The notes beneath the pieces were generated by a model that did no database searches, was not told the DNA's origin, and saw only the letters and a list, made by a program, of their open reading frames with translations. A stretch of 43,817 bases of DNA from the IMG/VR virus record IMGVR_UViG_3300048893_000075, positions 1 through 43,817 of that record; one strand, 5' to 3'. The stretch comes from a virus (lineage: Duplodnaviria; Caudoviricetes). Positions 6,070-43,817 of the stretch are shown one piece after another. Positions within the stretch are counted from its first letter, which is position 1. Every line of letters starts with the position of its first letter. The position numbers were made by a program, and so were the translations under genes.

Positions 6070-6154
6070 CCAAACACCTCTCCCCACCCCACTACCAAAG
6101 GTGGGGAGAATACCATATAGAGCGTTTACAGCAGCCAGCGAGTAAGGAGTGATT

Positions 6155-6394
6155 ATGGATTCAGAAAACAGCCGCGAATCAACCTTTGGCGAAAAAGCCG
6201 TAGGTGTTGGTTTTAACCCCTCAAAGAATGAAAAGGTTGACAAACTTAAAGAGCACTACGCTGCAATCATTGACATCCTAAACAGTGACCGTGGTGAAAA
6301 CCGTGACGAACGCGCCCGTCTCGCTTCCGTGGCCATTACCGAAGCACAAGGCGCTCAAATGTGGGCTGTCAAAGCAGTCACCTTTACACGCTAA
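6155..6394 (+). CDS. Acb2/Tad1-like helical hairpin protein (candidate nucleotide-signal sponge)
   Basis: FNPS...VD.LK...A.IID...RLASVAITEAQGAQMWAVKA resembles the C-terminal helix of Tad1/Acb2-type proteins; TAAGGAG site. Confidence 0.55.
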   Translation: MDSENSRESTFGEKAVGVGFNPSKNEKVDKLKEHYAAIIDILNSDRGENRDERARLASVAITEAQGAQMWAVKAVTFTR

Positions 6395-12443: not shown

Positions 12444-12821
12444 ATGGCAAGTAAGGCACCCAAGATAACAGTCAAACAGGCAAAGTTTGTTAAGGGAATC
12501 GCTGAGGGTAAAAAGAAGCGCGATGCAGCACGTGATGCTGGATACTCAGGCAGCCCTGAGACTCTATCCGTTACAGCCAGCGAGGTACTAAGAAAGCCTA
12601 ATGTGCAAGAGGCGTTGCAGTCAGAGCTTGAAAAACAAGGTATTACCCTTGAAAAGATCATAAAGCCAATTACTAATGCTTTAAACAGCGACAGTGTTGA
12701 AACACAACTTAAAGGTCACGACCGTGCAATGAGAATTGTTGCGCCTCGTATGGACACGCCTACCTTTAATTTTAATTTCGGTACTGTCGTAAATGGTGAT
12801 AGGGAAAAGTATGGAATATAA
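12444..12821 (+). CDS. terS: Terminase small subunit
   Basis: T.KQ.KF...AARDAGYS.......ASE.L.KP.V helix-turn-helix signature; directly upstream of TerL. Confidence 0.88.
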   Translation: MASKAPKITVKQAKFVKGIAEGKKKRDAARDAGYSGSPETLSVTASEVLRKPNVQEALQSELEKQGITLEKIIKPITNALNSDSVETQLKGHDRAMRIVAPRMDTPTFNFNFGTVVNGDREKYGI

Positions 12822-13713
12822 ACCATACAAAGGCCTGAATTCCCTACAGAATAATGAGCCTAGGGGCCATACAGGCTTTAACTGGCGCGGTTACAGCGAC
12901 TTTATGTCTGACCGCTTCACTATTGTGGACAAAAAGAAGCAAGAGGTGCCATTCACACAGCAGCCCGCACAAGATGACTTCTTGTACTGGATGAGTGTTT
13001 ACTTAAATATCTTGATTCTCAAGGCTCGCAAGATGGGCTTTAGTTCTACCGCTCTAGGTGTAGGTACGACCAAGTTTATAAATGGCAAGAATGAAAAATG
13101 TGTCTCTATGTCTTTTGATGCCGATGCTTCGGTTAAACAGCTGGCGAGAGCTAAGCATTACATTAAGAGCTATGAGCGCAAGAAATCCCTGGAACTACAA
13201 CAAGAGTTTAAACTACCACTCAAATACAATTCAAAGAAAGAGTTGGTACTTGAATGCAAAGACGAGGAAACGGGTGAGGAGTGGATTAATACATTGCGTG
13301 TCGGTACGGCCAAGTCTACCTCTTTTGGACGTGGTGATGACATTACATTCTTGCACCTTACAGAGGTTGCATTTTGTGATGATGTAGAGGTGTTGCTGGC
13401 TGGTGTGGGCGAGGCATTAGTAGATGGTGCACATACTATATTTGAAACAACTGCTAATGGATTTAATTCATATAAGGCGTTCTGGGATGCCGCAATTCTA
13501 AACAAGAAGGGTTTTGCTGCGCTATTCTATTCGCCCATGTGGGAGTACGACCAAGAGTATTTAGACAACCGCGAGAAGAAGCTAGGCAGACTATTTACGC
13601 AAGAGTATCCAATGACCCCACAAGACGCGTTCCTTACATCTGGCTTACCCTACTTTGATACATACGCGATGCGCGACTACCTCAAGAGAGTACAGAAAGC
13701 TATGGCTCTATGA
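12811..13713 (+). CDS. terL: Terminase large subunit, ATPase half
   Basis: Walker A LKARKMGFSS, Walker B LHLTEVAF, coupling motif ETTANG; alternative start 12793. Confidence 0.9.
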   Translation: MEYKPYKGLNSLQNNEPRGHTGFNWRGYSDFMSDRFTIVDKKKQEVPFTQQPAQDDFLYWMSVYLNILILKARKMGFSSTALGVGTTKFINGKNEKCVSMSFDADASVKQLARAKHYIKSYERKKSLELQQEFKLPLKYNSKKELVLECKDEETGEEWINTLRVGTAKSTSFGRGDDITFLHLTEVAFCDDVEVLLAGVGEALVDGAHTIFETTANGFNSYKAFWDAAILNKKGFAALFYSPMWEYDQEYLDNREKKLGRLFTQEYPMTPQDAFLTSGLPYFDTYAMRDYLKRVQKAMAL

Positions 13714-14459
13714 ATCCGCTAGATAAAGACATGTTTAGGCAATACAGGGAGTTACGTAAGGGCGAGTTTATTATCGTGTTCGTAGATACAGCCGGGGAAG
13801 GTAGCGACTGGAATGCCGCCCACTTCTTGAGTAGGGAAGCCTTAGACATACCCATAGTGCTGCACTATGAAGGCTCGATAGTCGATGTGACCCCGAAGCT
13901 CAAGAATGCCCTGGAATGGATACACGACCAGACTGGTATCAAGCCAGTGGTAGCATACGAGACAAACAACGGTGGTGGCTACGAGCTTGAACGGCTGGCC
14001 AGGCTTAACAAATACGAGAAGTTTATAATATACCGCCAATACAAACTTGACGAACACGGCAAATTAAAGCGCAGTGACAAATTGGGCTGGAATACTAATT
14101 CAGCTACGCGCCCGGCAATGTTGTCAGGAGTGGAAGACCTAATTAATAACATGCTCGTGACTATCTATGATGAACCTACAGTTAACGAGATGTTCAGCTT
14201 TGTAAAGCACAAAACCCCGAGCGGTTGGCGGGCCGAGGCAGAAGAAGGCTCGACTGACGACCTTATTCTATCGCTCGCTGGAGTATGGCAATTGTACCAG
14301 ACAGAGAAACCGCAGCCCAATGGGCAGACAGGCGGTCGTGTAGTAAGAACCAACGTGAACAACGGCCGTATGCCCCCCATGACAGTTAACCCCGATGGAA
14401 CAATGAGATTAAATCTAGACTTTAGGAGAGCACATGCTAAAAAGTCCTTTCGCCGATAA
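13710..14459 (+). CDS. terL: Terminase large subunit, RNase H-like nuclease half
   Basis: FVDTAGEGSD, YETNNGG, GW.TN..TRP, DDLILSLA motifs. Confidence 0.88.
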   Translation: MNPLDKDMFRQYRELRKGEFIIVFVDTAGEGSDWNAAHFLSREALDIPIVLHYEGSIVDVTPKLKNALEWIHDQTGIKPVVAYETNNGGGYELERLARLNKYEKFIIYRQYKLDEHGKLKRSDKLGWNTNSATRPAMLSGVEDLINNMLVTIYDEPTVNEMFSFVKHKTPSGWRAEAEEGSTDDLILSLAGVWQLYQTEKPQPNGQTGGRVVRTNVNNGRMPPMTVNPDGTMRLNLDFRRAHAKKSFRR

Positions 14460-15649: not shown

Positions 15650-15794
15650 ACAAGCTAGAGCCACTAACCGAGTCATCCTGAAAGCAATAACCGTAACCCT
15701 GGAGAATGGCACGGAACTTAACCTAGACATTCACAGGGTTGATCTAATAGACAAGAGTACAAAGAAAAGATTATTTAAACTGGAGAGCAAGTGA
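15639..15794 (+). CDS. Small hypothetical protein (51 aa, not in ORF track)
   Basis: MSNKQARATNRVILKAITV...; overlaps both neighbouring genes. Confidence 0.55.
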   Translation: MSNKQARATNRVILKAITVTLENGTELNLDIHRVDLIDKSTKKRLFKLESK

Positions 15795-17377
15795 TGCAAG
15801 ATAAGACCGTAGATATTCAATTTGATGCAAATGCACACCGCGAAATAGCCCGGGGTGTTGAAATGATCAGCAAGGCGGTGGCTTCAACATATGGCCCTGG
15901 TGGCCGTACCGTGCTTATCAAGAAGCGCTATGTTGACCCAATGACTACTCGTGACGGTGTGACAGTAGCCCTTAACATTGCTGGCCCTGGCAAGAAGCTA
16001 GACACTGAACTAGCTACCATGGGTGCAAAACTCGTATACCAAGCAAGCAACAAGACTGCTAAAACTGCTGGTGACGGCACAACTGCAACTACCATTCTTA
16101 TGGCCGAACTATACAAATCAGGCTATAAGCAAATCGTAGCCGGCACGGATGCAACCGAAGTCGTAGCTAGTCTGAACAAAGACCGCGACACTATTGTTAA
16201 GTATGTTGAATCCAAGTCTAAGAAGTGTGATAAAAAGATGCTCGATCAGGTAGCTACTATCTCATGCCGTGACGATCAGCTAGGCCAGATGATCAGTGAC
16301 TTAGTGTGGGATGTTGGCGCAGACGGTGCTATTAACCTGGAATATCAGAACGCTCCACTTGTTGAAGTAGACAAGATAACTGGCTATATGTTTAGCAGCG
16401 GCTTCAAAGACCTTACAGCACGCGCAATACTAGGCGACCCGACTATACTTGTCACGCAAAAACCTTTGCGCTCACGTTCTGATATACTCCCCTTACTCGA
16501 CCTGCTTATCAAACAAGACAACCCATCTGTCATTATCGGCGACGTATCGAGTGCAGCTTACGAAACACTGCTATGGGCACTCAGCAACGATATTAATCTA
16601 GAGGATGGTTCGGTACGCCGTCTGACGTGCTTGGTGGTGCCTCCCCCTGCATATGGCAGCGATGGGCATGACTACTTTGAAGATATTGCTACGTATACAG
16701 GCGCACGGCTCATACTAGAGTCTGACGAGTTCAAGCAGGTTACATCTGCCCACTTCGGCACAGCTAAGGGCGCTATTATCGAGCGCCACAAGGCCGTGAT
16801 CTTTGGCGACAACAAAACTGGCGACGAGATAGCTGAGCGCATTAAGACTATTAAAACTCTAATGGCTGACACCGACATTAGCCCTAGCCAAAAAGAAGCA
16901 TACGAGCAGCGTTTAGCTAAGCTGGCTGGCAAGGTGTCCATCCTCAAGATCGGTGCCGCAACCGATGTAGAGCGTGAGGAGTTATTCTTTAGGGTTGAGG
17001 ATGCAGTAGAGGCTTGCAAGTCAGCATTAAGCAGTGGTGTCGTTGCTGGTGGTGCTACTACCTTACTGTTTGCTAGTCAGCTAGAGATTGAGCGGTTCGT
17101 AAGTGACGCACTACAAAAGCCATTCAAGCTACTCATGGAACATTCAGCAGAAGATAGCGGCCTACGCAAGCAGCAGATTCTAAAGGCTGGCTATGGCAAA
17201 GGCTTCAACCTGAAAGCTATGACCGATGAGCCTACTGATCTTAATGAAAGCGGCGTAGTTGACCCAACCAAGGTTGTATTACAGACAGTCAAGAATGCGT
17301 TTGCTAACGCCGGGGCTTTGCTTACTATGGGCACTACTATTACAGAGGTTGAAGAAGATGAAGCTACCAATAAATAA
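15794..17377 (+). CDS. groEL: GroEL-like chaperonin
   Basis: YGPGG, TRDGVTVA, AGDGTT, RLAKLAG, RVEDAV, GVVAGG, GVVDPTKV. Confidence 0.95.
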   Translation: MQDKTVDIQFDANAHREIARGVEMISKAVASTYGPGGRTVLIKKRYVDPMTTRDGVTVALNIAGPGKKLDTELATMGAKLVYQASNKTAKTAGDGTTATTILMAELYKSGYKQIVAGTDATEVVASLNKDRDTIVKYVESKSKKCDKKMLDQVATISCRDDQLGQMISDLVWDVGADGAINLEYQNAPLVEVDKITGYMFSSGFKDLTARAILGDPTILVTQKPLRSRSDILPLLDLLIKQDNPSVIIGDVSSAAYETLLWALSNDINLEDGSVRRLTCLVVPPPAYGSDGHDYFEDIATYTGARLILESDEFKQVTSAHFGTAKGAIIERHKAVIFGDNKTGDEIAERIKTIKTLMADTDISPSQKEAYEQRLAKLAGKVSILKIGAATDVEREELFFRVEDAVEACKSALSSGVVAGGATTLLFASQLEIERFVSDALQKPFKLLMEHSAEDSGLRKQQILKAGYGKGFNLKAMTDEPTDLNESGVVDPTKVVLQTVKNAFANAGALLTMGTTITEVEEDEATNK

Positions 17378-37836: not shown

Positions 37837-38021
37837 GTATCACCGCATATATACAAGACATCTTCAACAACCCAGGTAAATACCAGAAGTTCTGGATAGC
37901 ACTTGCTGGTTTTGCAATTACCACGCTCACCACTTACTTTCCTGATGCTAGCTGGCTTACCCCACTTACGGCATTCCTGACAGCTATAGGGGTTCTACAA
38001 ATACCTAATAAGAAAGGGTAA
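37833..38021 (+). CDS. Holin
   Basis: KF..A, two hydrophobic segments, C-terminal GV..IPN; directly after the lysin. Confidence 0.7.
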   Translation: MSITAYIQDIFNNPGKYQKFWIALAGFAITTLTTYFPDASWLTPLTAFLTAIGVLQIPNKKG

Positions 38022-38023
38022 CT

Positions 38024-38182
38024 ATGATACTGCTACTTAACTTAATATTCGCAATACTAGCTTTCTTCTTCACAAGGTACGTTATGCTTGAATGTAAAGC
38101 CACTCCTGTAGTAGCTACTGTTGTAGGTGTACTTATGGGGATAGTAGTGTTTCTGGCTAATTTGGGCGCACAGGTAGTATAA
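38024..38182 (+). CDS. Small two-pass membrane protein (52 aa, not in ORF track)
   Basis: MILLLNLIFAILAFFF...LANLGAQVV. Confidence 0.55.
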   Translation: MILLLNLIFAILAFFFTRYVMLECKATPVVATVVGVLMGIVVFLANLGAQVV

Positions 38183-38200
38183 TAAGAGTAATGGTTGACC

Positions 38201-38238
38201 TAACAGCAATTGACATAAACAACCATTAGTGCTAAGAT
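38201..38238 (+). promoter_or_regulatory. Sigma70-type promoter; copy 1 of a 29-bp direct repeat
   Basis: TTGACA(38210)-17 bp-TAAGAT(38233); 38201-38229 matches 40881-40909 at 28/29. Confidence 0.7.
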
Positions 38239-38273
38239 TGAACCAATCAAACAGAGATGTTTGACCCGCGAAG

Positions 38274-38320
38274 GAAATAAATAAACCCCAACCAATTCGG
38301 AAGGGGTTTATTTATTTTTT
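38274..38320. terminator. Bidirectional intrinsic terminator
   Basis: AAATAAATAAACCCC...GGGGTTTATTTATTT between convergent transcripts. Confidence 0.7.
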
Positions 38321-38329
38321 GAGTATTTT

Positions 38330-38415
38330 TGGTGGAGGGTGCGGGGGTCGAACCCGCTCTCCCGCGAAGGAATCCGTTTTACAGACGGTTGCATTAACCG
38401 TTCTGCCAACCCCCC
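38330..38415 (-). tRNA. tRNA-Tyr(GTA)
   Basis: Reverse complement gives acceptor GGGGGGT/ACCCTCC-A-CCA, anticodon loop CTGTAAA, long variable arm, GGTTCGA T arm; minus-strand GGTATAAT at 38522-38529. Confidence 0.9.
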
Positions 38416-38562
38416 ATAACCAGAAAAGCACCCATGAGCAAGGTGGGAATTCTACAAACCACCAAGCTCAAGGATGCTCTTAGATGTAAGGTACGTAGAA
38501 TTTTTTACCTTGTCACTCGCTATTATACCGTAACGCTGGTGCTTACGCAAATGCTGCTAGCT

Positions 38563-38643
38563 GCTATAATAGTAAGTACTTTTGCCAAAGGAAAGTGTGC
38601 TACGAAACAGAAAACCGCCCCAATGTACACAGGGCGGTTTTTC
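38563..38643 (+). promoter_or_regulatory. Promoter, short RNA and terminator
   Basis: TGCTATAAT; AAAACCGCCC/GGGCGGTTTT. Confidence 0.5.
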
Positions 38644-38729
38644 ATTTTGTCTACACCTACTCTAAAGAGTAGAGGCTGGAGAAGCATAACATAGGTTGGT
38701 TAGGAGTACTAGGGGTTTTTATTGTTGTT

Positions 38730-38849
38730 TGGTATACTGGCAGTGTCTAGGTACAAGGTAGTGTGTTCGAACAAGGATTGGGGTACTTCCCGAAAGAGGT
38801 TCGAACACCTTTGTACCTAGACAGTGCTAGGGGAGTGCCCCAATTTTTA
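38730..38849 (+). ncRNA. Small RNA with a long hairpin and a competing 15-bp loop-tail helix
   Basis: TGGTATACT promoter; 38744-38758/38809-38823, 38763-38772/38799-38808 and 38777-38791/38830-38844 pairings. Confidence 0.6.
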
Positions 38850-38864
38850 TTTATAGTCATTTCG

Positions 38865-38972
38865 TGTTACAATAAAGGTCTGGTCACAGGGAGCTGCCGT
38901 GGTCTAGAGTAATCTAGGCCTGGTATGTCGTGGCTATCTATGACTTCCAGGATATTCTTGGAAGTCTTTTTT
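38865..38972 (+). ncRNA. Candidate trans-acting antisense sRNA (about 90 nt)
   Basis: TGTTACAAT promoter; central hairpin GGTCTAGA-GTAA-TCTAGGCC; terminator GACTTCCA/TGGAAGTC plus T6; complementary to 41134-41160. Confidence 0.65.
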
Positions 38973-39128
38973 ATGACTGTCAAGTATTTTCCTTAGATTC
39001 TCTAGCCCACGGGCAACCATCGCTTACTGTTGTGCGTACAACAACATGAGCACCAACAGAAGAACCCGCCAGTGTACGGGGTGTGTTTGCTGTTGTCTAA
39101 ATTTTGGAAGATATGGGGAATTAAGGAT

Positions 39129-39629
39129 ATGAATTTAGGTGAAGCATTAAAAGAACGTTACGCTTCTATAGAAAAGAGAGGTAATAAACCTCCTGTTACT
39201 TCTATAGAACTGCCAGCTGAAATAGAAAGCTTAATAACGGGTAGTGACTACTGGCGTAAGGCCAAGGTCAACCGTTACAAGAAGCTTATCCGTGAGGGTC
39301 ATCTTGACGACTTGCTGGAACTCGCGAAACAGGCGTTAGCCAAAGACACGCCCGCTAACTGGTTTGCACGAGTGGCATCCAAGGCGCAATGGCAACGAAC
39401 ACTAGACTGGCTCGCTAAGCTACGAGAAGTGGCACAGAACGCCGTCGAAGTAGCAAAACGGTTAGGAGTCGTGCCCGAGCAGATGAAAGCCGTATACAAG
39501 GCATGCTGGCGCTTTGGTGACTCTGTAATTAGCAAGGCCGTTACAGCCGAGGAAACAGGTAGGGATAAGTTTAAGTACTTCAATTGGCTATGCAGGTACG
39601 AGGGTATGCCACATGGAAAACGCAGCTAA
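39129..39629 (+). CDS. Hypothetical helical protein (possible replication or regulatory protein)
   Basis: TAAGGA site before ATG 39129; two similar P..WF / ..YFNW helical units; function is a guess. Confidence 0.65.
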   Translation: MNLGEALKERYASIEKRGNKPPVTSIELPAEIESLITGSDYWRKAKVNRYKKLIREGHLDDLLELAKQALAKDTPANWFARVASKAQWQRTLDWLAKLREVAQNAVEVAKRLGVVPEQMKAVYKACWRFGDSVISKAVTAEETGRDKFKYFNWLCRYEGMPHGKRS

Positions 39630-39819
39630 AAGTATCGAGGTCTTATTTGCAGAGCCATTTGAACCTCAGTGGATGAAACAGCGCCAACAGGATGAGGCAT
39701 TGGCTGAAGTTCAGGAGTTAAACGATATGCTGACACGCAATGATTTCAATTGGAAAGAGTCAGCAAAAGAGTCGAGGGAGCGCATAGCCGCAAAGTTTAG
39801 CCAACGAACAAATAGTTAA
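39613..39819 (+). CDS. Hypothetical protein
   Basis: GAGG site; overlaps the previous gene. Confidence 0.6.
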   Translation: MENAAKSIEVLFAEPFEPQWMKQRQQDEALAEVQELNDMLTRNDFNWKESAKESRERIAAKFSQRTNS

Positions 39820-39967
39820 GTAAGCATAAACTTTACAGTTTTGCAACAATAGTGACTCAATCATATCACGTTTTGGGTAAGCGCCGCAGTGCGCTTTATC
39901 CAGTTTACAAGGGGAGGTATAAGGAACAACAATAACTAAAGTACTGTCTAGGAAAAGGTGTGGAAGT

Positions 39968-40870
39968 ATGAGTATCAGCGAGGCGTTTGACCTGTACCGT
40001 TTGGACTACATTATATACAATAATCAGTCCGAAAAAACCTTGGATGCACACAATTGTGCGCTCAGGTTCCTACTTGATTTTTTGGGCGAAGACATACAAA
40101 TCGAAGATCTGACGCTGCCTCAGGTAAAAGCTTGGAAACGTTCTTTGGATGATGGGCGTTTAGTCGGGACGGTACGTGAGTACTTAACCCGTCTTAGAAT
40201 GGTATTGAAATACCAGCGCATAGAAGGGAATAACGATGTAATAAGCTTTGAGCGTATTACCCTACCACCTAGGGATGATCCAGATCCCCAGTTCTTGACC
40301 GTTGACCAGGTTGAGGAATTAATCAGGGTCATGTTTAAGCCCACTCGGGGGTACTCAAAGCTAAATAGGTATCGAAATCGTGCACTGATAAGTCTGTTAT
40401 TCGCAGCTGGCTTGCGGTCTGCTGAGATACGTAAAATGGATAGGAATAGCATACGGACGGATGGAACATTTACCATTAAAGGTAAAAAGAAGCGAAAGCG
40501 CCTTTGCTTTACAGATGAGGCCACTCTCATATATATACGAGAGTACTTAGCGATGCGCACAGACAGCAATCCTGCATTATTTATTGCTAACCAGAATGGT
40601 AAAAGACTATCTAAAAACGCTTTTCAGCGTATCTTTGAGAATGCACGCCGTAAGGTGGATTTTGACGTGTTTGTCCATGGTCACACGTTAAGACACAGCT
40701 TTGCTACCGATTTGTTACGCAACAACGCAAACATGCGTTACGTGCAGGCAATGCTCGGCCACTCATCAATACAAACCACTCAGATTTATACTCATGTGGT
40801 AGACATAGATTTAGAGGGAGCGCATAAAAAACATCATACGCGGCTACCCCTTATAACAAATACTTTTTGA
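39968..40870 (+). CDS. int: Tyrosine recombinase/integrase (XerC/D-like)
   Basis: GLRSAE, KGKK, HTLRHSFAT, LGH, TTQIY catalytic set. Confidence 0.95.
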   Translation: MSISEAFDLYRLDYIIYNNQSEKTLDAHNCALRFLLDFLGEDIQIEDLTLPQVKAWKRSLDDGRLVGTVREYLTRLRMVLKYQRIEGNNDVISFERITLPPRDDPDPQFLTVDQVEELIRVMFKPTRGYSKLNRYRNRALISLLFAAGLRSAEIRKMDRNSIRTDGTFTIKGKKKRKRLCFTDEATLIYIREYLAMRTDSNPALFIANQNGKRLSKNAFQRIFENARRKVDFDVFVHGHTLRHSFATDLLRNNANMRYVQAMLGHSSIQTTQIYTHVVDIDLEGAHKKHHTRLPLITNTF

Positions 40871-40880
40871 AAAAACGGCG

Positions 40881-40918
40881 TAACAACAATTGACATAAAC
40901 AACCATTAGGAGTACTAT
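40881..40918 (+). promoter_or_regulatory. Main early promoter candidate; copy 2 of the 29-bp repeat
   Basis: TTGACA(40890)-17 bp-TACTAT(40913). Confidence 0.75.
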
Positions 40919-40993
40919 AGGGATAGTTAATTGAACTTTCACATAGCTACAGCGAAGATTACACATCAGAAGGTGTAGCTAAAAATAGCCCGT

Positions 40994-41072
40994 GCGGGCT
41001 TTCGAGCCTAACGCTTAGAGCGCATCCTTGCCAAGGATGAGGCCAGGGGTTAGAGTCCCCTGACCCGCACCA
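40994..41072 (+). tRNA. tRNA-Gly(GCC)-like sequence with degenerate 5'/D arm; probable attP core (about 41015-41072)
   Basis: CATCC-TTGCCAA-GGATG anticodon arm, CAGGG/CCCTG T arm, CCCGC-A-CCA end; adjacent to the integrase. Confidence 0.75.
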
Positions 41073-41090
41073 CATATTTTTAGCCATTAT

Positions 41091-41125
41091 AAACCCTTCT
41101 GATGAAGAATCAGGAGGGTTTTTTT
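41091..41125 (+). terminator. Intrinsic terminator after attP
   Basis: AAACCCTTCTGAT/ATCAGGAGGGTTT plus T run. Confidence 0.8.
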
Positions 41126-41366
41126 GTTACCTCTTTAGGCCACGACACATCCCTGTGACCTAAAGAGCCCGATAACGAAACTTATCGCGCAGTTAGCGGT
41201 CGTCCCCGTTCAAGGACGCAAGCGTTTGAATGATCTGATAAAAGCTTTGAGTGTCTACTCGTTAGAAGCTTCCAGATCAACTAGCTTGAGAGATTCATCT
41301 CCGAGGTGGAGATACAACGGTTCTTTTACAACTTATATCGGGATTGTCACTAATAAGGAGACAATC

Positions 41367-41732
41367 ATGCAATACATTTTCGTTATGCCTAACGGTAAAG
41401 AGATTCGCATGGATAAGACTTACTTTGAAAAGCACATGCCAAAATCGAATATCAAATACCACCCCTACGGCGTTAGTGGCGACGGGTACATCCACCCTGA
41501 TGATATCGACAAGATATTTAGCCGTCACAGCCGTAAGGTAAAAACGATCTTTGACACCGCCAAAAAGCTCTACAAAGAATACGAGGGCAAAAACTGGCTT
41601 GGCTTACCCGAAACAGTACGCGATCTGGTATGGATTCAGCACCAAACTGCGGAAGAGGAACAGCAGAGCCGCCAGGAAGACCTACGATTCTTTAGGAGCT
41701 ACGAGCTAGGTGTACGTGCAGTAGCAGCATAG
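41367..41732 (+). CDS. Hypothetical protein, first early gene
   Basis: TAAGGAG site before ATG 41367, held in hairpin GATTGTC/GACAATC. Confidence 0.75.
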   Translation: MQYIFVMPNGKEIRMDKTYFEKHMPKSNIKYHPYGVSGDGYIHPDDIDKIFSRHSRKVKTIFDTAKKLYKEYEGKNWLGLPETVRDLVWIQHQTAEEEQQSRQEDLRFFRSYELGVRAVAA

Positions 41733-41801
41733 ATATGTCCAGCATTTATTGCTGGCAACCCCGATATAAGAAGCAAAAGACCAAAACCAGAAGGAGCGCA
41801 T

Positions 41802-42386
41802 ATGAAGGGACTCATAAAAGCCCTAAGTATCGCCCTGTTAAGTGCGGCCTTAATCAGCCTAGCACCTAACAAGGAAGCTCCGGCGCAACTTAACAATTCA
41901 ACTCAACCAACGAGTAGTTCGGTAATTCCGGACAACTCGGAACCAGAGACACAGCGAACACGAGCACCAATTCAACAGGACAAACGCGACGAAAAGGTAG
42001 CAGTGAAAACTGAAACAGAGTTGAAGCCGGAGAGTACGGCCAGGCAAGTAAAACCCGCCGTACCAAGTAATACACAAGGATGCGAACAATACCGTCACCT
42101 ATTCGAACAATACGCTTGGCCTGTTAATACCGCCTTGGCTATATGCCAGGCAGAGAGTAGCGGAAACATACAGGCTGTGAACTGGGGAGATAACCACGGC
42201 AAGTGTAAGGGGAGTTTTTCCCTTATGCAAGTCGGCTGTTTCTGGTACCCACATTTTGGATATTCTGAAGCAGATAGGTACAAACCAGAAGTAAACGTAA
42301 AAATAGCATATCAGATATATGAACGTCAGAAGTCTTTCGGGGCGTGGACTACATATACTGGTGGGCGGTATCTCAAGTTCTTGTAG
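41802..42386 (+). CDS. Secreted lytic transglycosylase (SLT/lysozyme-like)
   Basis: Signal peptide, low-complexity linker, AESSGN catalytic Glu, SLMQV, NV..AY.IY, AW..Y. Confidence 0.85.
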   Translation: MKGLIKALSIALLSAALISLAPNKEAPAQLNNSTQPTSSSVIPDNSEPETQRTRAPIQQDKRDEKVAVKTETELKPESTARQVKPAVPSNTQGCEQYRHLFEQYAWPVNTALAICQAESSGNIQAVNWGDNHGKCKGSFSLMQVGCFWYPHFGYSEADRYKPEVNVKIAYQIYERQKSFGAWTTYTGGRYLKFL

Positions 42387-42541
42387 GTTAAGGACGGATA
42401 GCTAGTAGCAATGGCCGAATTTAGTAGGCTATGCCGATTGAGGAATGTAACGGCACCTGATGAGAGATTCTAGAGAGTGCTCATTAAGGCGGCGATCCGC
42501 GCAACAGTTACATCATTGCTACTAGCTATCCGTCCTTAACC
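42386..42541 (+). ncRNA. Stem-closed RNA domain A
   Basis: Perfect 28-bp inverted repeat 42386-42413/42514-42541; inner stems ATGTAAC/GTTACAT and TGATGAG/CTCATTA. Confidence 0.65.
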
Positions 42542-42544
42542 AAC

Positions 42545-42676
42545 CCCTAGCGCCTACTCAAGCGGTCACAAGGAGCATCAATACTTGAACGGATTAACGG
42601 TCAACAATAGCCGCCGCAGGTATTGTGCTGGGCACAGCTTAAACGGTTCACACAACCGCTTGCGTGGGCGCTAGGG
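42545..42676 (+). ncRNA. Stem-closed RNA domain B
   Basis: 42545-42566/42655-42676 (22 bp, one mismatch, one G-U); inner CAATACTTG/CAGGTATTG; followed by a C(UUCG)G hairpin. Confidence 0.6.
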
Positions 42677-42698
42677 TGGAGGCTTCGGCCTTCTATAT

Positions 42699-42775
42699 GC
42701 GGCAGTACATGGCACAAGCAAGGTCTTTGGAATTGTACCTATGCTTGCCAGTTCGAATCTGGAACTGCCGCAACT
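42699..42775 (+). ncRNA. tRNA-like RNA C (no D arm, long central arm)
   Basis: GCGGCAGT/ACTGCCGC stem, CCAG-TTCGAAT-CTGG T arm, CAAGCA/TGCTTG arm; no encoded CCA. Confidence 0.6.
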
Positions 42776-42779
42776 ATAT

Positions 42780-42857
42780 GGGGTGCTTAACAAGGATGTT
42801 AGCCAGGGGTTTACGTTCCCTGGGGCAGTTAGGTTCGATTCCTAAAGCCCCCCGCCA
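42780..42857 (+). tRNA. Non-canonical tRNA-like RNA D (8/5 fold, possible TAC anticodon)
   Basis: GGGGTGCT/AGCCCCCC-G-CCA, TAACA/TGTTA, CCAGGG/CCCTGG, TTAGG-TTCGATT-CCTAA. Confidence 0.65.
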
Positions 42858-42873
42858 AACTATATAAACCAAC

Positions 42874-43046
42874 AAGGGCAGGAATCCGGTAGCAAGGCTC
42901 GAATCTAAGGACGAATTTATAAAGTGCTCGTTCAGCGTCGCCCTACCTATACCAAGCACGTAGGTGGTAGGGAATCAGCGTAAGATTGGCAGCGTAAACG
43001 TCGTTGGGGTTTCGCCAACCCTACTTGCTATCGGTTTTATGCCCTT
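42874..43046 (+). ncRNA. Stem-closed RNA domain E
   Basis: AAGGGCA/TGCCCTT plus CCGGTAGCAAG/CTTGCTATCGG; inner CCCTACC/GGTAGGG and GTTGG/CCAAC. Confidence 0.6.
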
Positions 43047-43073
43047 ACATAAGTAAATAGAAGGAGTGGAGAT

Positions 43074-43304
43074 ATGGAATACAGAGATAAGGTAAAAAGC
43101 TACCTTGAAAATATTGGGGTGACTGTTCAGCGTATTGAGCAAGAAGGTGATACAGAGTCTGTGGTCTGCCATATATCATCAATCGACAAACAAAAAATAA
43201 TAGATGCACAAACAAAAATCGAGGACGACCTTAACTCTGTTGTGCAGCTTAGCGATATGTTCGGCATGAATGTAGTTATCGTTGAATCAAATGATCTTGA
43301 ATAA
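43074..43304 (+). CDS. Hypothetical acidic protein inside the RNA array
   Basis: GGAG site; 76 aa. Confidence 0.7.
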   Translation: MEYRDKVKSYLENIGVTVQRIEQEGDTESVVCHISSIDKQKIIDAQTKIEDDLNSVVQLSDMFGMNVVIVESNDLE

Positions 43305-43336
43305 CCACTCTTAATCACATAGGAAGGGAGAGAGAT

Positions 43337-43504
43337 ATGGGAAAGAGAATTAGTTTAAGTGACGTCGAGGTACAGTTTTTACTGAGACTCTGTCTTAGGG
43401 AGGATAGAATCCGTAACACAGCAGACGCTTCTACGGTGTTTGCCGAGGAATCCCTAGATAAGCTTATCCAAAAGCTTGACTCGACTGTAAAGGAAGAGGG
43501 CTAA
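43337..43504 (+). CDS. Hypothetical protein (55 aa, not in ORF track) inside the RNA array
   Basis: GGAG site; MGKRISLSDVEVQFLLRL...VKEEG. Confidence 0.6.
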   Translation: MGKRISLSDVEVQFLLRLCLREDRIRNTADASTVFAEESLDKLIQKLDSTVKEEG

Positions 43505-43523
43505 CCACCCTTTAACCAAATAA

Positions 43524-43625
43524 GTAAGAGCCAACTAGCTGCCGGGGAGTCTGTAGATAAGGACACCTGAACGTGAGGCCGTCAACTACATGCGCAAGAT
43601 TCGCCGGTGTGTAGTTGGCTCTTAC
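43524..43625 (+). ncRNA. Stem-closed RNA domain F
   Basis: Perfect 14-bp GTAAGAGCCAACTA/TAGTTGGCTCTTAC; inner GCCGG/CCGGT, GAGTCT/AGATTC, TGTAG/CTACA. Confidence 0.6.
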
Positions 43626-43626
43626 G

Positions 43627-43817
43627 GTAGAAACGCATGTAATGCGGTAGTAAGTGGCGGAATAGGTAGACGTTATCGACGCCATAACAAGCATAGGTGG
43701 CGCACCTCAGCAGTGTACATACCCTAGGCTTTATACCTTGGCGGCATGCAGGATGACTATACGAGTACATCTACCTTAACTAGGTAGCTCTGAGCAACAG
43801 CACGGCGCGCTTCGCAA
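43627..43817 (+). ncRNA. 5' part of stem-closed RNA domain G (continues to 219)
   Basis: 43627-43654 pairs with 191-219 across the junction. Confidence 0.6.
43691..43817. repeat. Terminal direct repeat (identical to 1-127)
   Basis: Exact match to 1-127. Confidence 0.95.

Follow-up and report, generated by a model that had tools for sequence, protein, structure and literature searches.

An attachment site within the early leader as a possible recombination-operated lysis–lysogeny switch in a phage of likely Saccharibacteria hosts

How can a temperate phage keep its lytic genes silent when no repressor is recognised in its genome and when the site at which it recombines with its host lies between an early promoter and the first terminator? 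This question is raised by IMGVR_UViG_3300048893_000075, a viral record analysed here over its entire length of 43,817 nt (hereafter, the window). The original prediction, made from the letters of the sequence, proposed an attP inside an antiterminator and a repressor-free lytic switch operated by integration. We examined the locus, its relatives and their prophages.

The Phage and Its Likely Host

The window is the whole record, with a 127-nt terminal repeat at its ends; the phage is temperate, and its genome is complete and circular (43.7 kb). A PHROG profile search recognised a terminase, a portal, a major head protein, an endolysin and a tyrosine integrase, and nearly all genes lie on the + strand. 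These are virion genes, unlike the conjugation genes that define a conjugative element (ICE). Elsewhere in the window, we noted a GroEL (15791-17377), an Acb2/Tad1-like anti-defence protein (6149-6394) and possibly the large terminase in two ORFs (12793-14459).

A 30-nt pattern taken from the tRNA remnant that follows the integrase gene matched 43 genome loci, the titles of which read Saccharibacteria or Saccharimonad- in 30 cases, Patescibacteria in three, unnamed bacterium in seven and something else in three. Positions 41015-41072 are letter-identical to the 3' part of tRNA-Gly(GCC) in 11 of these 43 loci. From this identity and from the titles, the host is likely a Saccharibacterium, and 41015-41072 the attP common core. 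Genome searches found no prophage of the phage itself; in 401 and 310 further genomes (711 in total), none of its own clade and none closer turned up at E<=1e-85, and the four DNA runs examined showed no att junction.

Integrase and Attachment Site

The recombination module consists of two adjoining elements:

39968..40870, + strand: tyrosine integrase, 300 aa (PHROG 1, E 9e-47; PF00589; weak SAM-like domain)
41015..41072, + strand: attP common core, the 3' 58 nt of the host tRNA-Gly(GCC), by sequence identity

An integrase gene next to a segment identical to a host tRNA is what is expected of tyrosine integrases that target tRNA genes. No N-terminal arm-binding domain was recognised in this integrase by family profile search, and no Xis was recognised in the phage. 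The tRNA remnant scores 33.6 bits against RF00005 and is missed by ARAGORN; its 5' side (40992-41014) only mimics a tRNA, with the acceptor pairing restored and the D arm altered. Sequence comparison places the likely crossover in the anticodon loop (41028-41034). The cores of other relatives end within that loop, and L045, an attR from a closer relative that has this Gly core too, is identical to the window only from 41026 on, so its crossover lies in or after the anticodon stem. Another locus, L034, is an attL resembling L044.

No ORF of at least 50 aa overlaps 40871-41225, and attP is thus not carried inside a repressor gene in the manner of mycobacteriophage BPs. A tRNA-sensing attenuator of the T-box kind is not suggested either: the T-box leader family gave no match in Rfam, and the tRNA-like part differs in isotype and orientation between relatives.

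A Long Predicted Helix Encloses the Core and Competes with the Terminator

Between the integrase stop and the early genes, the following elements were delineated:

40890..40918, + strand: sigma-70 promoter TTGACA-17-TACTAT of the early (lytic) transcript (promoter scan; same position after int in relatives)
40944..40981, + strand: rival leader hairpin, 40944-40951 being the complement of 40974-40981
40957..40977, + strand: antiterminator arm, with its core at 40964-40973, pairing with the terminator left arm and loop flank
40978..40998, + strand: clamp arm (40978-40987), then the pseudo acceptor arm (40992-40998); together they close the helix around the att core
41075..41084, + strand: clamp partner strand, complement of 40978-40987
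41091..41125, + strand: intrinsic terminator T1 (hairpin 41091-41121 and T run)

Transcription probably starts near 40925. The promoter and the terminator behind the tRNA-Gly remnant, both part of the original prediction, are present, and the predicted pairings are exact throughout: 40964-40973 with 41095-41104, 40978-40987 with 41075-41084, and the two sides of the rival hairpin. The helix is in fact longer than first reported, with about 35 bp in five nested stems that reach from the pseudo acceptor stem to the loop of the terminator (40957-60/41108-11, 40964-73/41095-104, 40974-77/41088-91, 40978-87/41075-84 and 40992-98/41064-70). In 20,000 dinucleotide-shuffled leaders, a 10-nt complement was obtained 4 times for the terminator, 9 times for the spacer and 0 times for both together.

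That this helix excludes the terminator, as had been claimed, holds only for part of the life of the transcript. Predicted folding along the growing RNA lets the antiterminator helix dominate only for RNA 3' ends from about 41101 to 41117 (its probability being 0.99 over 41104-41116), but the terminator is favoured from 41119 on and is the more stable fold of the finished transcript by ~4-6 kcal/mol. The same holds at equilibrium in most relatives, where the terminator wins by a median of 4.7 kcal/mol. A heuristic path search predicts barriers of 3.8-4.8 kcal/mol from rival hairpin to antiterminator and of ~15 kcal/mol from antiterminator to terminator. The model therefore depends on kinetics estimated by this heuristic search: the antiterminator is predicted to be a kinetic trap, not the equilibrium fold, which is the terminator. 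The rival hairpin would fold first, the clamp would displace it, and the arm would then pair with the left arm of the terminator while the right arm has yet to emerge. As to the rival hairpin in relatives, at least half of the arm pairs within the leader in 15 of 26 clusters, which is hardly more than the leader background.

Relatives and the Layout of Their Prophages

Integrase homologs were used to fetch viral and genome loci; 29 of 401 genomes passed the threshold, many of them with host XerD-like matches. A metagenome scan (1/64 parts) matched mostly host XerD-like genes as well, and a single-protein search of viral contigs returned 0 loci. Out of 127 distinct regions, we kept 47 natural attP, 6 rebuilt attP, 23 attR, 6 attL and 5 attB rows. 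Regions under 330 nt were dropped, as were those without a tRNA anchor or a terminator (for example, L047, L048, L055, L056, L081, L091, L208, L209, L210, L218, L221, L378 and L399), two ambiguous ones (L059 and L377) and 12 small tRNA-Val elements with leaders of at most 24 nt. During hand curation, twelve rows were corrected and nine classed as attP. In the duplex, left-arm and ranking counts below, L084 stands with a misassigned promoter. The 53 attP rows fall into 33 clusters by shared 13-mers, which are still kin, and many of the 23 attR control rows are near relatives of one another.

The order of elements behind the integrase stop is conserved in otherwise unrelated sequences: a strong promoter, a leader, a tRNA core and a terminator. 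The cores derive from tRNA-Gly(GCC), Thr(GGT), Ala(GGC), Ala(CGC) or His, in either orientation, and consist of 3' halves, 5' halves or short cores adjoining a whole tRNA. Two core copies 28-34 kb apart on one contig were found in 5/5 genomes tested for the Gly core and in one for the Ala core.

How integration cuts the locus can be seen in six complete prophages whose integrases are related (G216, G180, G243, G326, G330 and G356). The int end (attR) of all six carries the promoter and the leader followed by host DNA, and the other end (attL) carries the host-side tRNA followed by the phage terminator and the early genes; the two core copies bound the prophage, and an intact tRNA is rebuilt at one end. 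A TTAACAATT-type motif lies within 86-205 nt of the phage terminator at attL in each of them. The separation of promoter and antiterminator from terminator and early genes by a crossover in the tRNA, until then a prediction, is therefore seen in these relatives, and all six are bounded by the tRNA core. A promoter with an antiterminating element at one end and a terminator at the other, joined only at attP, is also the arrangement of ICEKp1 and Tn916.

Several other features of the relatives were recorded. In some, the att core is short and lies next to a whole tRNA of that isotype (Gly, His, Ala: L044:6030-6175; L400, L401, L221; L059, L077, L093), which recalls the tRNA-dependent lysogeny of actinophages as excerpted from PMC10865867. 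Either half of the tRNA can make up the core, and in either orientation (L053, L084, L060, L049 and others); at the loop, the Thr and Ala cores both have the palindrome CCATGG, which may permit orientation switching. Small elements with a related integrase and almost no leader sit at tRNA-Val(GAC) (L212, L214, L222, L380-L398; viral records mostly of 6-7 kb). On one contig (G265:C22; L256, L257), two related integrases are spaced 30 kb apart and each precedes a Gly core, as in tandem prophages or a circular contig, and the G330 prophage (L482, L483) has a large gene block on the opposite strand.

Leader and Terminator Complementarity across the Family

The duplex of the leader with the terminator arm and loop beats shuffles (p<0.05) in 16/47 natural and 4/6 rebuilt attP rows, against 2/23 attR, 0/6 attL and 0/5 attB rows. 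Random leaders commonly pair with a terminator arm, so that nascent folds have to be read against expectation: at least half of the left arm is paired with the leader in 34 of 47 natural attP rows (17.8 expected) and in all 6 rebuilt ones (3.0 expected), the controls giving 5/23 for attR (8.7 expected), 3/6 for attL (1.9) and 1/5 for attB (1.6). At least six terminator bases, in a count that takes in three bases past the loop, are paired with the leader side of the nascent fold in 26/33 attP clusters, 8/23 attR, 1/6 attL and 0/5 attB rows. In 20 of the 33 clusters, the own leader is in the top quarter when ranked against foreign leaders and likewise against foreign terminators.

Position matters as well. 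Significant complementarity to the leader (p<=0.05) is found on the terminator arm and loop in 14/33 clusters and on the spacer in 9/32, then falls to 3/33 in the 25 nt past the terminator and 2/33 in the following stretch; untranscribed upstream DNA gives 1/32 and host terminators at attR 0/23. The covariation that had been proposed as a check is there: the arm covaries with the terminator across the 33 clusters, and both change jointly between close relatives (L070 v L071, L400 v L401). The fit is uneven across the family. The arm of some relatives reaches over the loop and the beginning of the right arm and not over the left arm; others have spacer-only clamps, and seven of the 33 clusters (L080, L088, L093, L103, L256, L364 and L366) show little or no pairing. 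L044, whose integrase is the nearest among the loci, fails two of three pairing measures, and rebuilt G330 fails one.

Complementary segments could also be inverted repeats in DNA that serve recombination, by binding the integrase or accessory proteins or by forming cruciforms. The repeats are symmetric about the core, and G-U pairs in the leader helix are about as frequent as A-C mismatches (10 v 9), as would suit such repeats; raw duplex energies favour the sense strand in only 13/33 clusters, a figure confounded by composition. With no G-U bias, the strand test does not separate RNA pairing from DNA repeats. What separates them are the bounds of the signal, which runs from the start site to the terminator, and the fact that the sequences are not conserved among related integrases, both of which make the recombination reading very improbable.

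Transcription Downstream of T1

A promoter matrix was trained on the promoters of 31 relatives; shuffles give ~1 site above 14 bits and ~5 above 11. Only three sites in the window exceed 14 bits, at 38210 (+), 40890 (+) and 35315 (-), and no + strand site exceeds 11 bits with this matrix between T1 (41125) and 38210. A separate early promoter downstream of 41125, which would argue against the switch, was sought and no strong one was seen with this matrix; a looser scan gave three candidates (41551, 11543 and 17885), so there may be weak internal promoters, and the candidate at 41551 failed the family matrix. Sixteen + strand terminator-like hairpins lie between 3728 and 35347 with no strong + promoter among them, and a transcript of this length would need processive antitermination to cross them.

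Two features follow T1 in the early region:

41322..41334, + strand: imperfect boxA-like site, the only site above 4 bits in 40920-41400
41367..41732, + strand: first early ORF, matched by no family

The motif found after the phage terminators matches one in 3/3 host 16S leaders, which we take to be the rrn boxA. NusB was found in 5/5 hosts. Having passed T1, the polymerase would thus meet an rRNA-type boxA, could load host NusB/NusE-type factors there and read through many terminators.

These observations allow another reading, in which promoter separation together with Nus/boxA antitermination makes the switch, as in Tn916, and the helix mainly hides or processes the tRNA half with little effect on T1. 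It would account for a terminator that is the equilibrium fold, for the spacer-only clamps and for the seven clusters without arm pairing, and a boxA-like motif precedes att in 12/33 leaders, where it could aid read-through of T1 without the helix. Yet the window's own leader has no boxA-like site, complementarity peaks on the terminator and stops there, and arm and terminator change together in the two pairs of close relatives, so that we consider this reading rather unlikely and prefer a helix that would act on T1.

Other structures of the early region are listed for completeness. The first early protein ends in AVAA, which presumably resembles a ClpXP degradation tag. Three segments with long stems (42385-42545, 42545-42682 and 42872-43050; -65 to -77 kcal/mol) accompany two tRNA-like elements (42698-42772 and 42780-42853, the second a weak tRNA-Sec match), and L046 has similar long stems at the same place as window 42385-43050. 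A degenerate tRNA-Leu-like start with hairpins was seen by eye across the contig join (43640-43800), with an unconvincing fold.

A Predicted Small RNA Antisense to the Hairpin behind T1

Upstream of the integrase, a second RNA element faces a target just behind T1:

38865..38972, + strand: small antisense RNA gene (extended -10 at 38865-38873; antisense segment 38882-38909; terminator 38942-38966)
41131..41167, + strand: hairpin H1 after T1, of which 41131-41158 is the antisense RNA target

The predicted promoter-driven transcript covers 38880-38972, and its segment 38882-38909 forms a duplex of -44.3 kcal/mol with 41131-41158. Relatives have the same arrangement: a promoter upstream of the conserved gene that precedes int runs into a terminator after 40-90 nt, and with its first 20-30 nt the RNA is complementary to the loop and 5' arm of the hairpin just downstream of T1. 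This complementarity is found in 25 of 32 testable clusters, against 0/23 attR controls and 2/756 non-cognate pairs; four further rows have weaker matches, and in most rows the RNA begins at its promoter and ends in its terminator. G-U pairs and A-C mismatches are equally frequent in this helix (15 v 15). A repeat ~2 kb from att, lying between a promoter and a terminator of its own, is a further point against inverted repeats that serve recombination.

Small-RNA gene and target lie at opposite prophage ends in G356 and G243, so the RNA must act in trans. When 16 relatives are aligned, two-sided changes occur at 12/15 pairs of H1 and at 3/6 of a mutually exclusive helix, H2, both structures having been drawn by hand from the same 16 sequences that were scored. 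Folding with the target blocked favours H2 in many rows; no canonical terminator was formed and boxA accessibility was unchanged. Judging from its position and by analogy with P4, whose CI RNA is likewise complementary to an early leader, the small RNA would repress rather than activate and is likely a second lock in place of a repressor protein. No CI or seqA RNA family was matched in Rfam over 38000-43817 at E<=1. Immunity through the P4 CI RNA is Rho-dependent, whereas Rho was over the cut-off in 0/5 hosts here.

The neighbourhood of this gene has other features. A second copy of the att promoter (~29 nt nearly identical) drives an 80-nt RNA into a two-way terminator (38202-38325); by eye, this RNA repeats 12 nt of the variable arm of the neighbouring tRNA-Tyr, and no antisense partner for it was found in the genome (best score 10). 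The intact tRNA-Tyr(GTA) at 38330-38415 (-) has a promoter of its own at 38983 (-); between the tRNA and the small RNA gene lies a long hairpin of very high stability (38741-38826).

Is There a Protein Repressor?

No repressor family was recognised among the window ORFs (63 scans against Pfam and 86 against PHROGs) or among 147 ORFs (55-420 aa) of four prophages, a search that is weak because most ORFs belong to no family. One ORF deserves attention:

39129..39629, + strand: helical protein conserved between small RNA and int in most relatives (homolog and profile comparison)

It is a candidate replication protein, directionality factor or regulator; PDB, PHROGs, Pfam and NCBIfam gave nothing firm for it. 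Were it a repressor, its targets might be the promoters at 38210 and 40890, which are nearly identical, and the RNA elements would only insulate and fine-tune. The ~29 nt common to these promoters would fit, as would the presence of such a gene before int in most relatives, its place on the attR side in prophages and a weak TrmB HTH match in 2 of 24 family members (E 0.0056). Against this, no HTH family passed the threshold, the nearest named Atlas clusters are DnaD/helicase-loader-like (a lead only), no common operator is evident by eye in the aligned promoters, and the covarying small RNA would be left unexplained. We therefore regard a protein repressor as unlikely. The term "repressor-free" should be replaced: what holds is that no protein repressor was recognised, and the antisense RNA likely plays the repressor's part.

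A Model for the Switch

With att inside the leader, recombination splits the antiterminator arm from T1. Probably, the attP helix traps T1 in the circular phage, integration leaves T1 unopposed, and the small RNA blocks transcripts that escape. On the circle, transcription would run from the promoter through the helix across attP, past T1, H1 and boxA, and on as one long transcript. In the prophage, the leader at attR would face a host terminator, and T1, placed behind the host tRNA promoter at attL, would end the rebuilt tRNA transcript. The small RNA, whose gene stays with int at attR, would open H1 in trans, permit H2 and silence an excised circle or a superinfecting phage; induction would then need both excision and loss of the small RNA.

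Extended to the family, the proposal becomes more tentative. A widespread group of Saccharibacteria phages may decide between lysis and lysogeny without a protein repressor, by a recombination-cut antiterminator and a ~50-90-nt antisense RNA that flips a two-helix switch before a borrowed rRNA boxA; we see this as a serious possibility that falls somewhat short of probable. The immunity type would then amount to ~25 freely changeable bases, and the genome would hang on one promoter.

Relation to Known Systems

Lambda sib destabilises the int mRNA and, unlike the switch proposed here, does not gate lytic genes. The likeness is that att recombination separates an RNA structure from a transcript (excerpts of PMC6379469). 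Mycobacteriophage BPs, the precedent first invoked, remains apt in that integration itself is the switch, and excerpts of PMC3694055 also describe a short integrase without arm-binding domain and with no Xis recognised, as in our phage; but what BPs splits is a protein repressor gene, whereas in our phage an RNA structure is divided by att and no repressor gene extends across it, and ICEKp1 and Tn916 are closer.

ICEKp1 integrates into a tRNA and has, at one end, a promoter that is joined across attP to terminator-like stem-loops; a 15-bp end segment across attP relieves termination in reporters, and pairing with stem-loop SL3 was proposed (excerpts of PMC13023037). As far as these excerpts go, ICEKp1 controls the int of a conjugative element, whereas the phage switch would control the whole lytic transcript, with int upstream of the promoter, and differs by a ~35-bp helix that covaries across many unrelated sequences and by the added antisense RNA. 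In Tn916, integration parts a promoter and an antiterminator (canT) from the insulating end terminator T1, and excision rejoins them; canT, a large RNA, has a processive effect on heterologous terminators and is proposed to target the polymerase (PMC11658703 and bioRxiv 10.64898/2026.10.01.756105, in excerpt). The phage arm, by contrast, has a single cognate terminator as its complement, and boxA/Nus is the predicted source of processivity (compare the excerpts of PMC11658703); judging from the pairing, its action appears cognate-specific, unlike the heterologous action of canT. The silencing of lytic transcription through the early leader by a small antisense RNA, not a protein, would resemble P4 CI, with the difference that P4 CI is processed from the same transcript and the phage RNA has its own promoter across att (PMC4825925, in excerpt). 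The phage switch would work like ICEKp1 or Tn916 with P4 added and is a member of neither group.

Saccharibacteria prophages were catalogued without regulation in the excerpted part of PMC10746230. In the literature searched, which did not extend to subscription papers, we found neither a phage paper on an att-split antiterminator arrangement nor a description of how temperate Patescibacteria phages are silenced.

Significance

For Patescibacteria prophages, the locus offers a compact answer to how silence is kept: a switch of less than 250 nt from DNA state to RNA fold, and a small RNA lock. It would extend to phages a principle that has until now been shown in conjugative elements, and would stand as a minimal lysogeny circuit. 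It would also allow immunity groups to be predicted by rule from sequence, and its parts could serve for integration and expression in a group of bacteria that has hardly any genetic tools.
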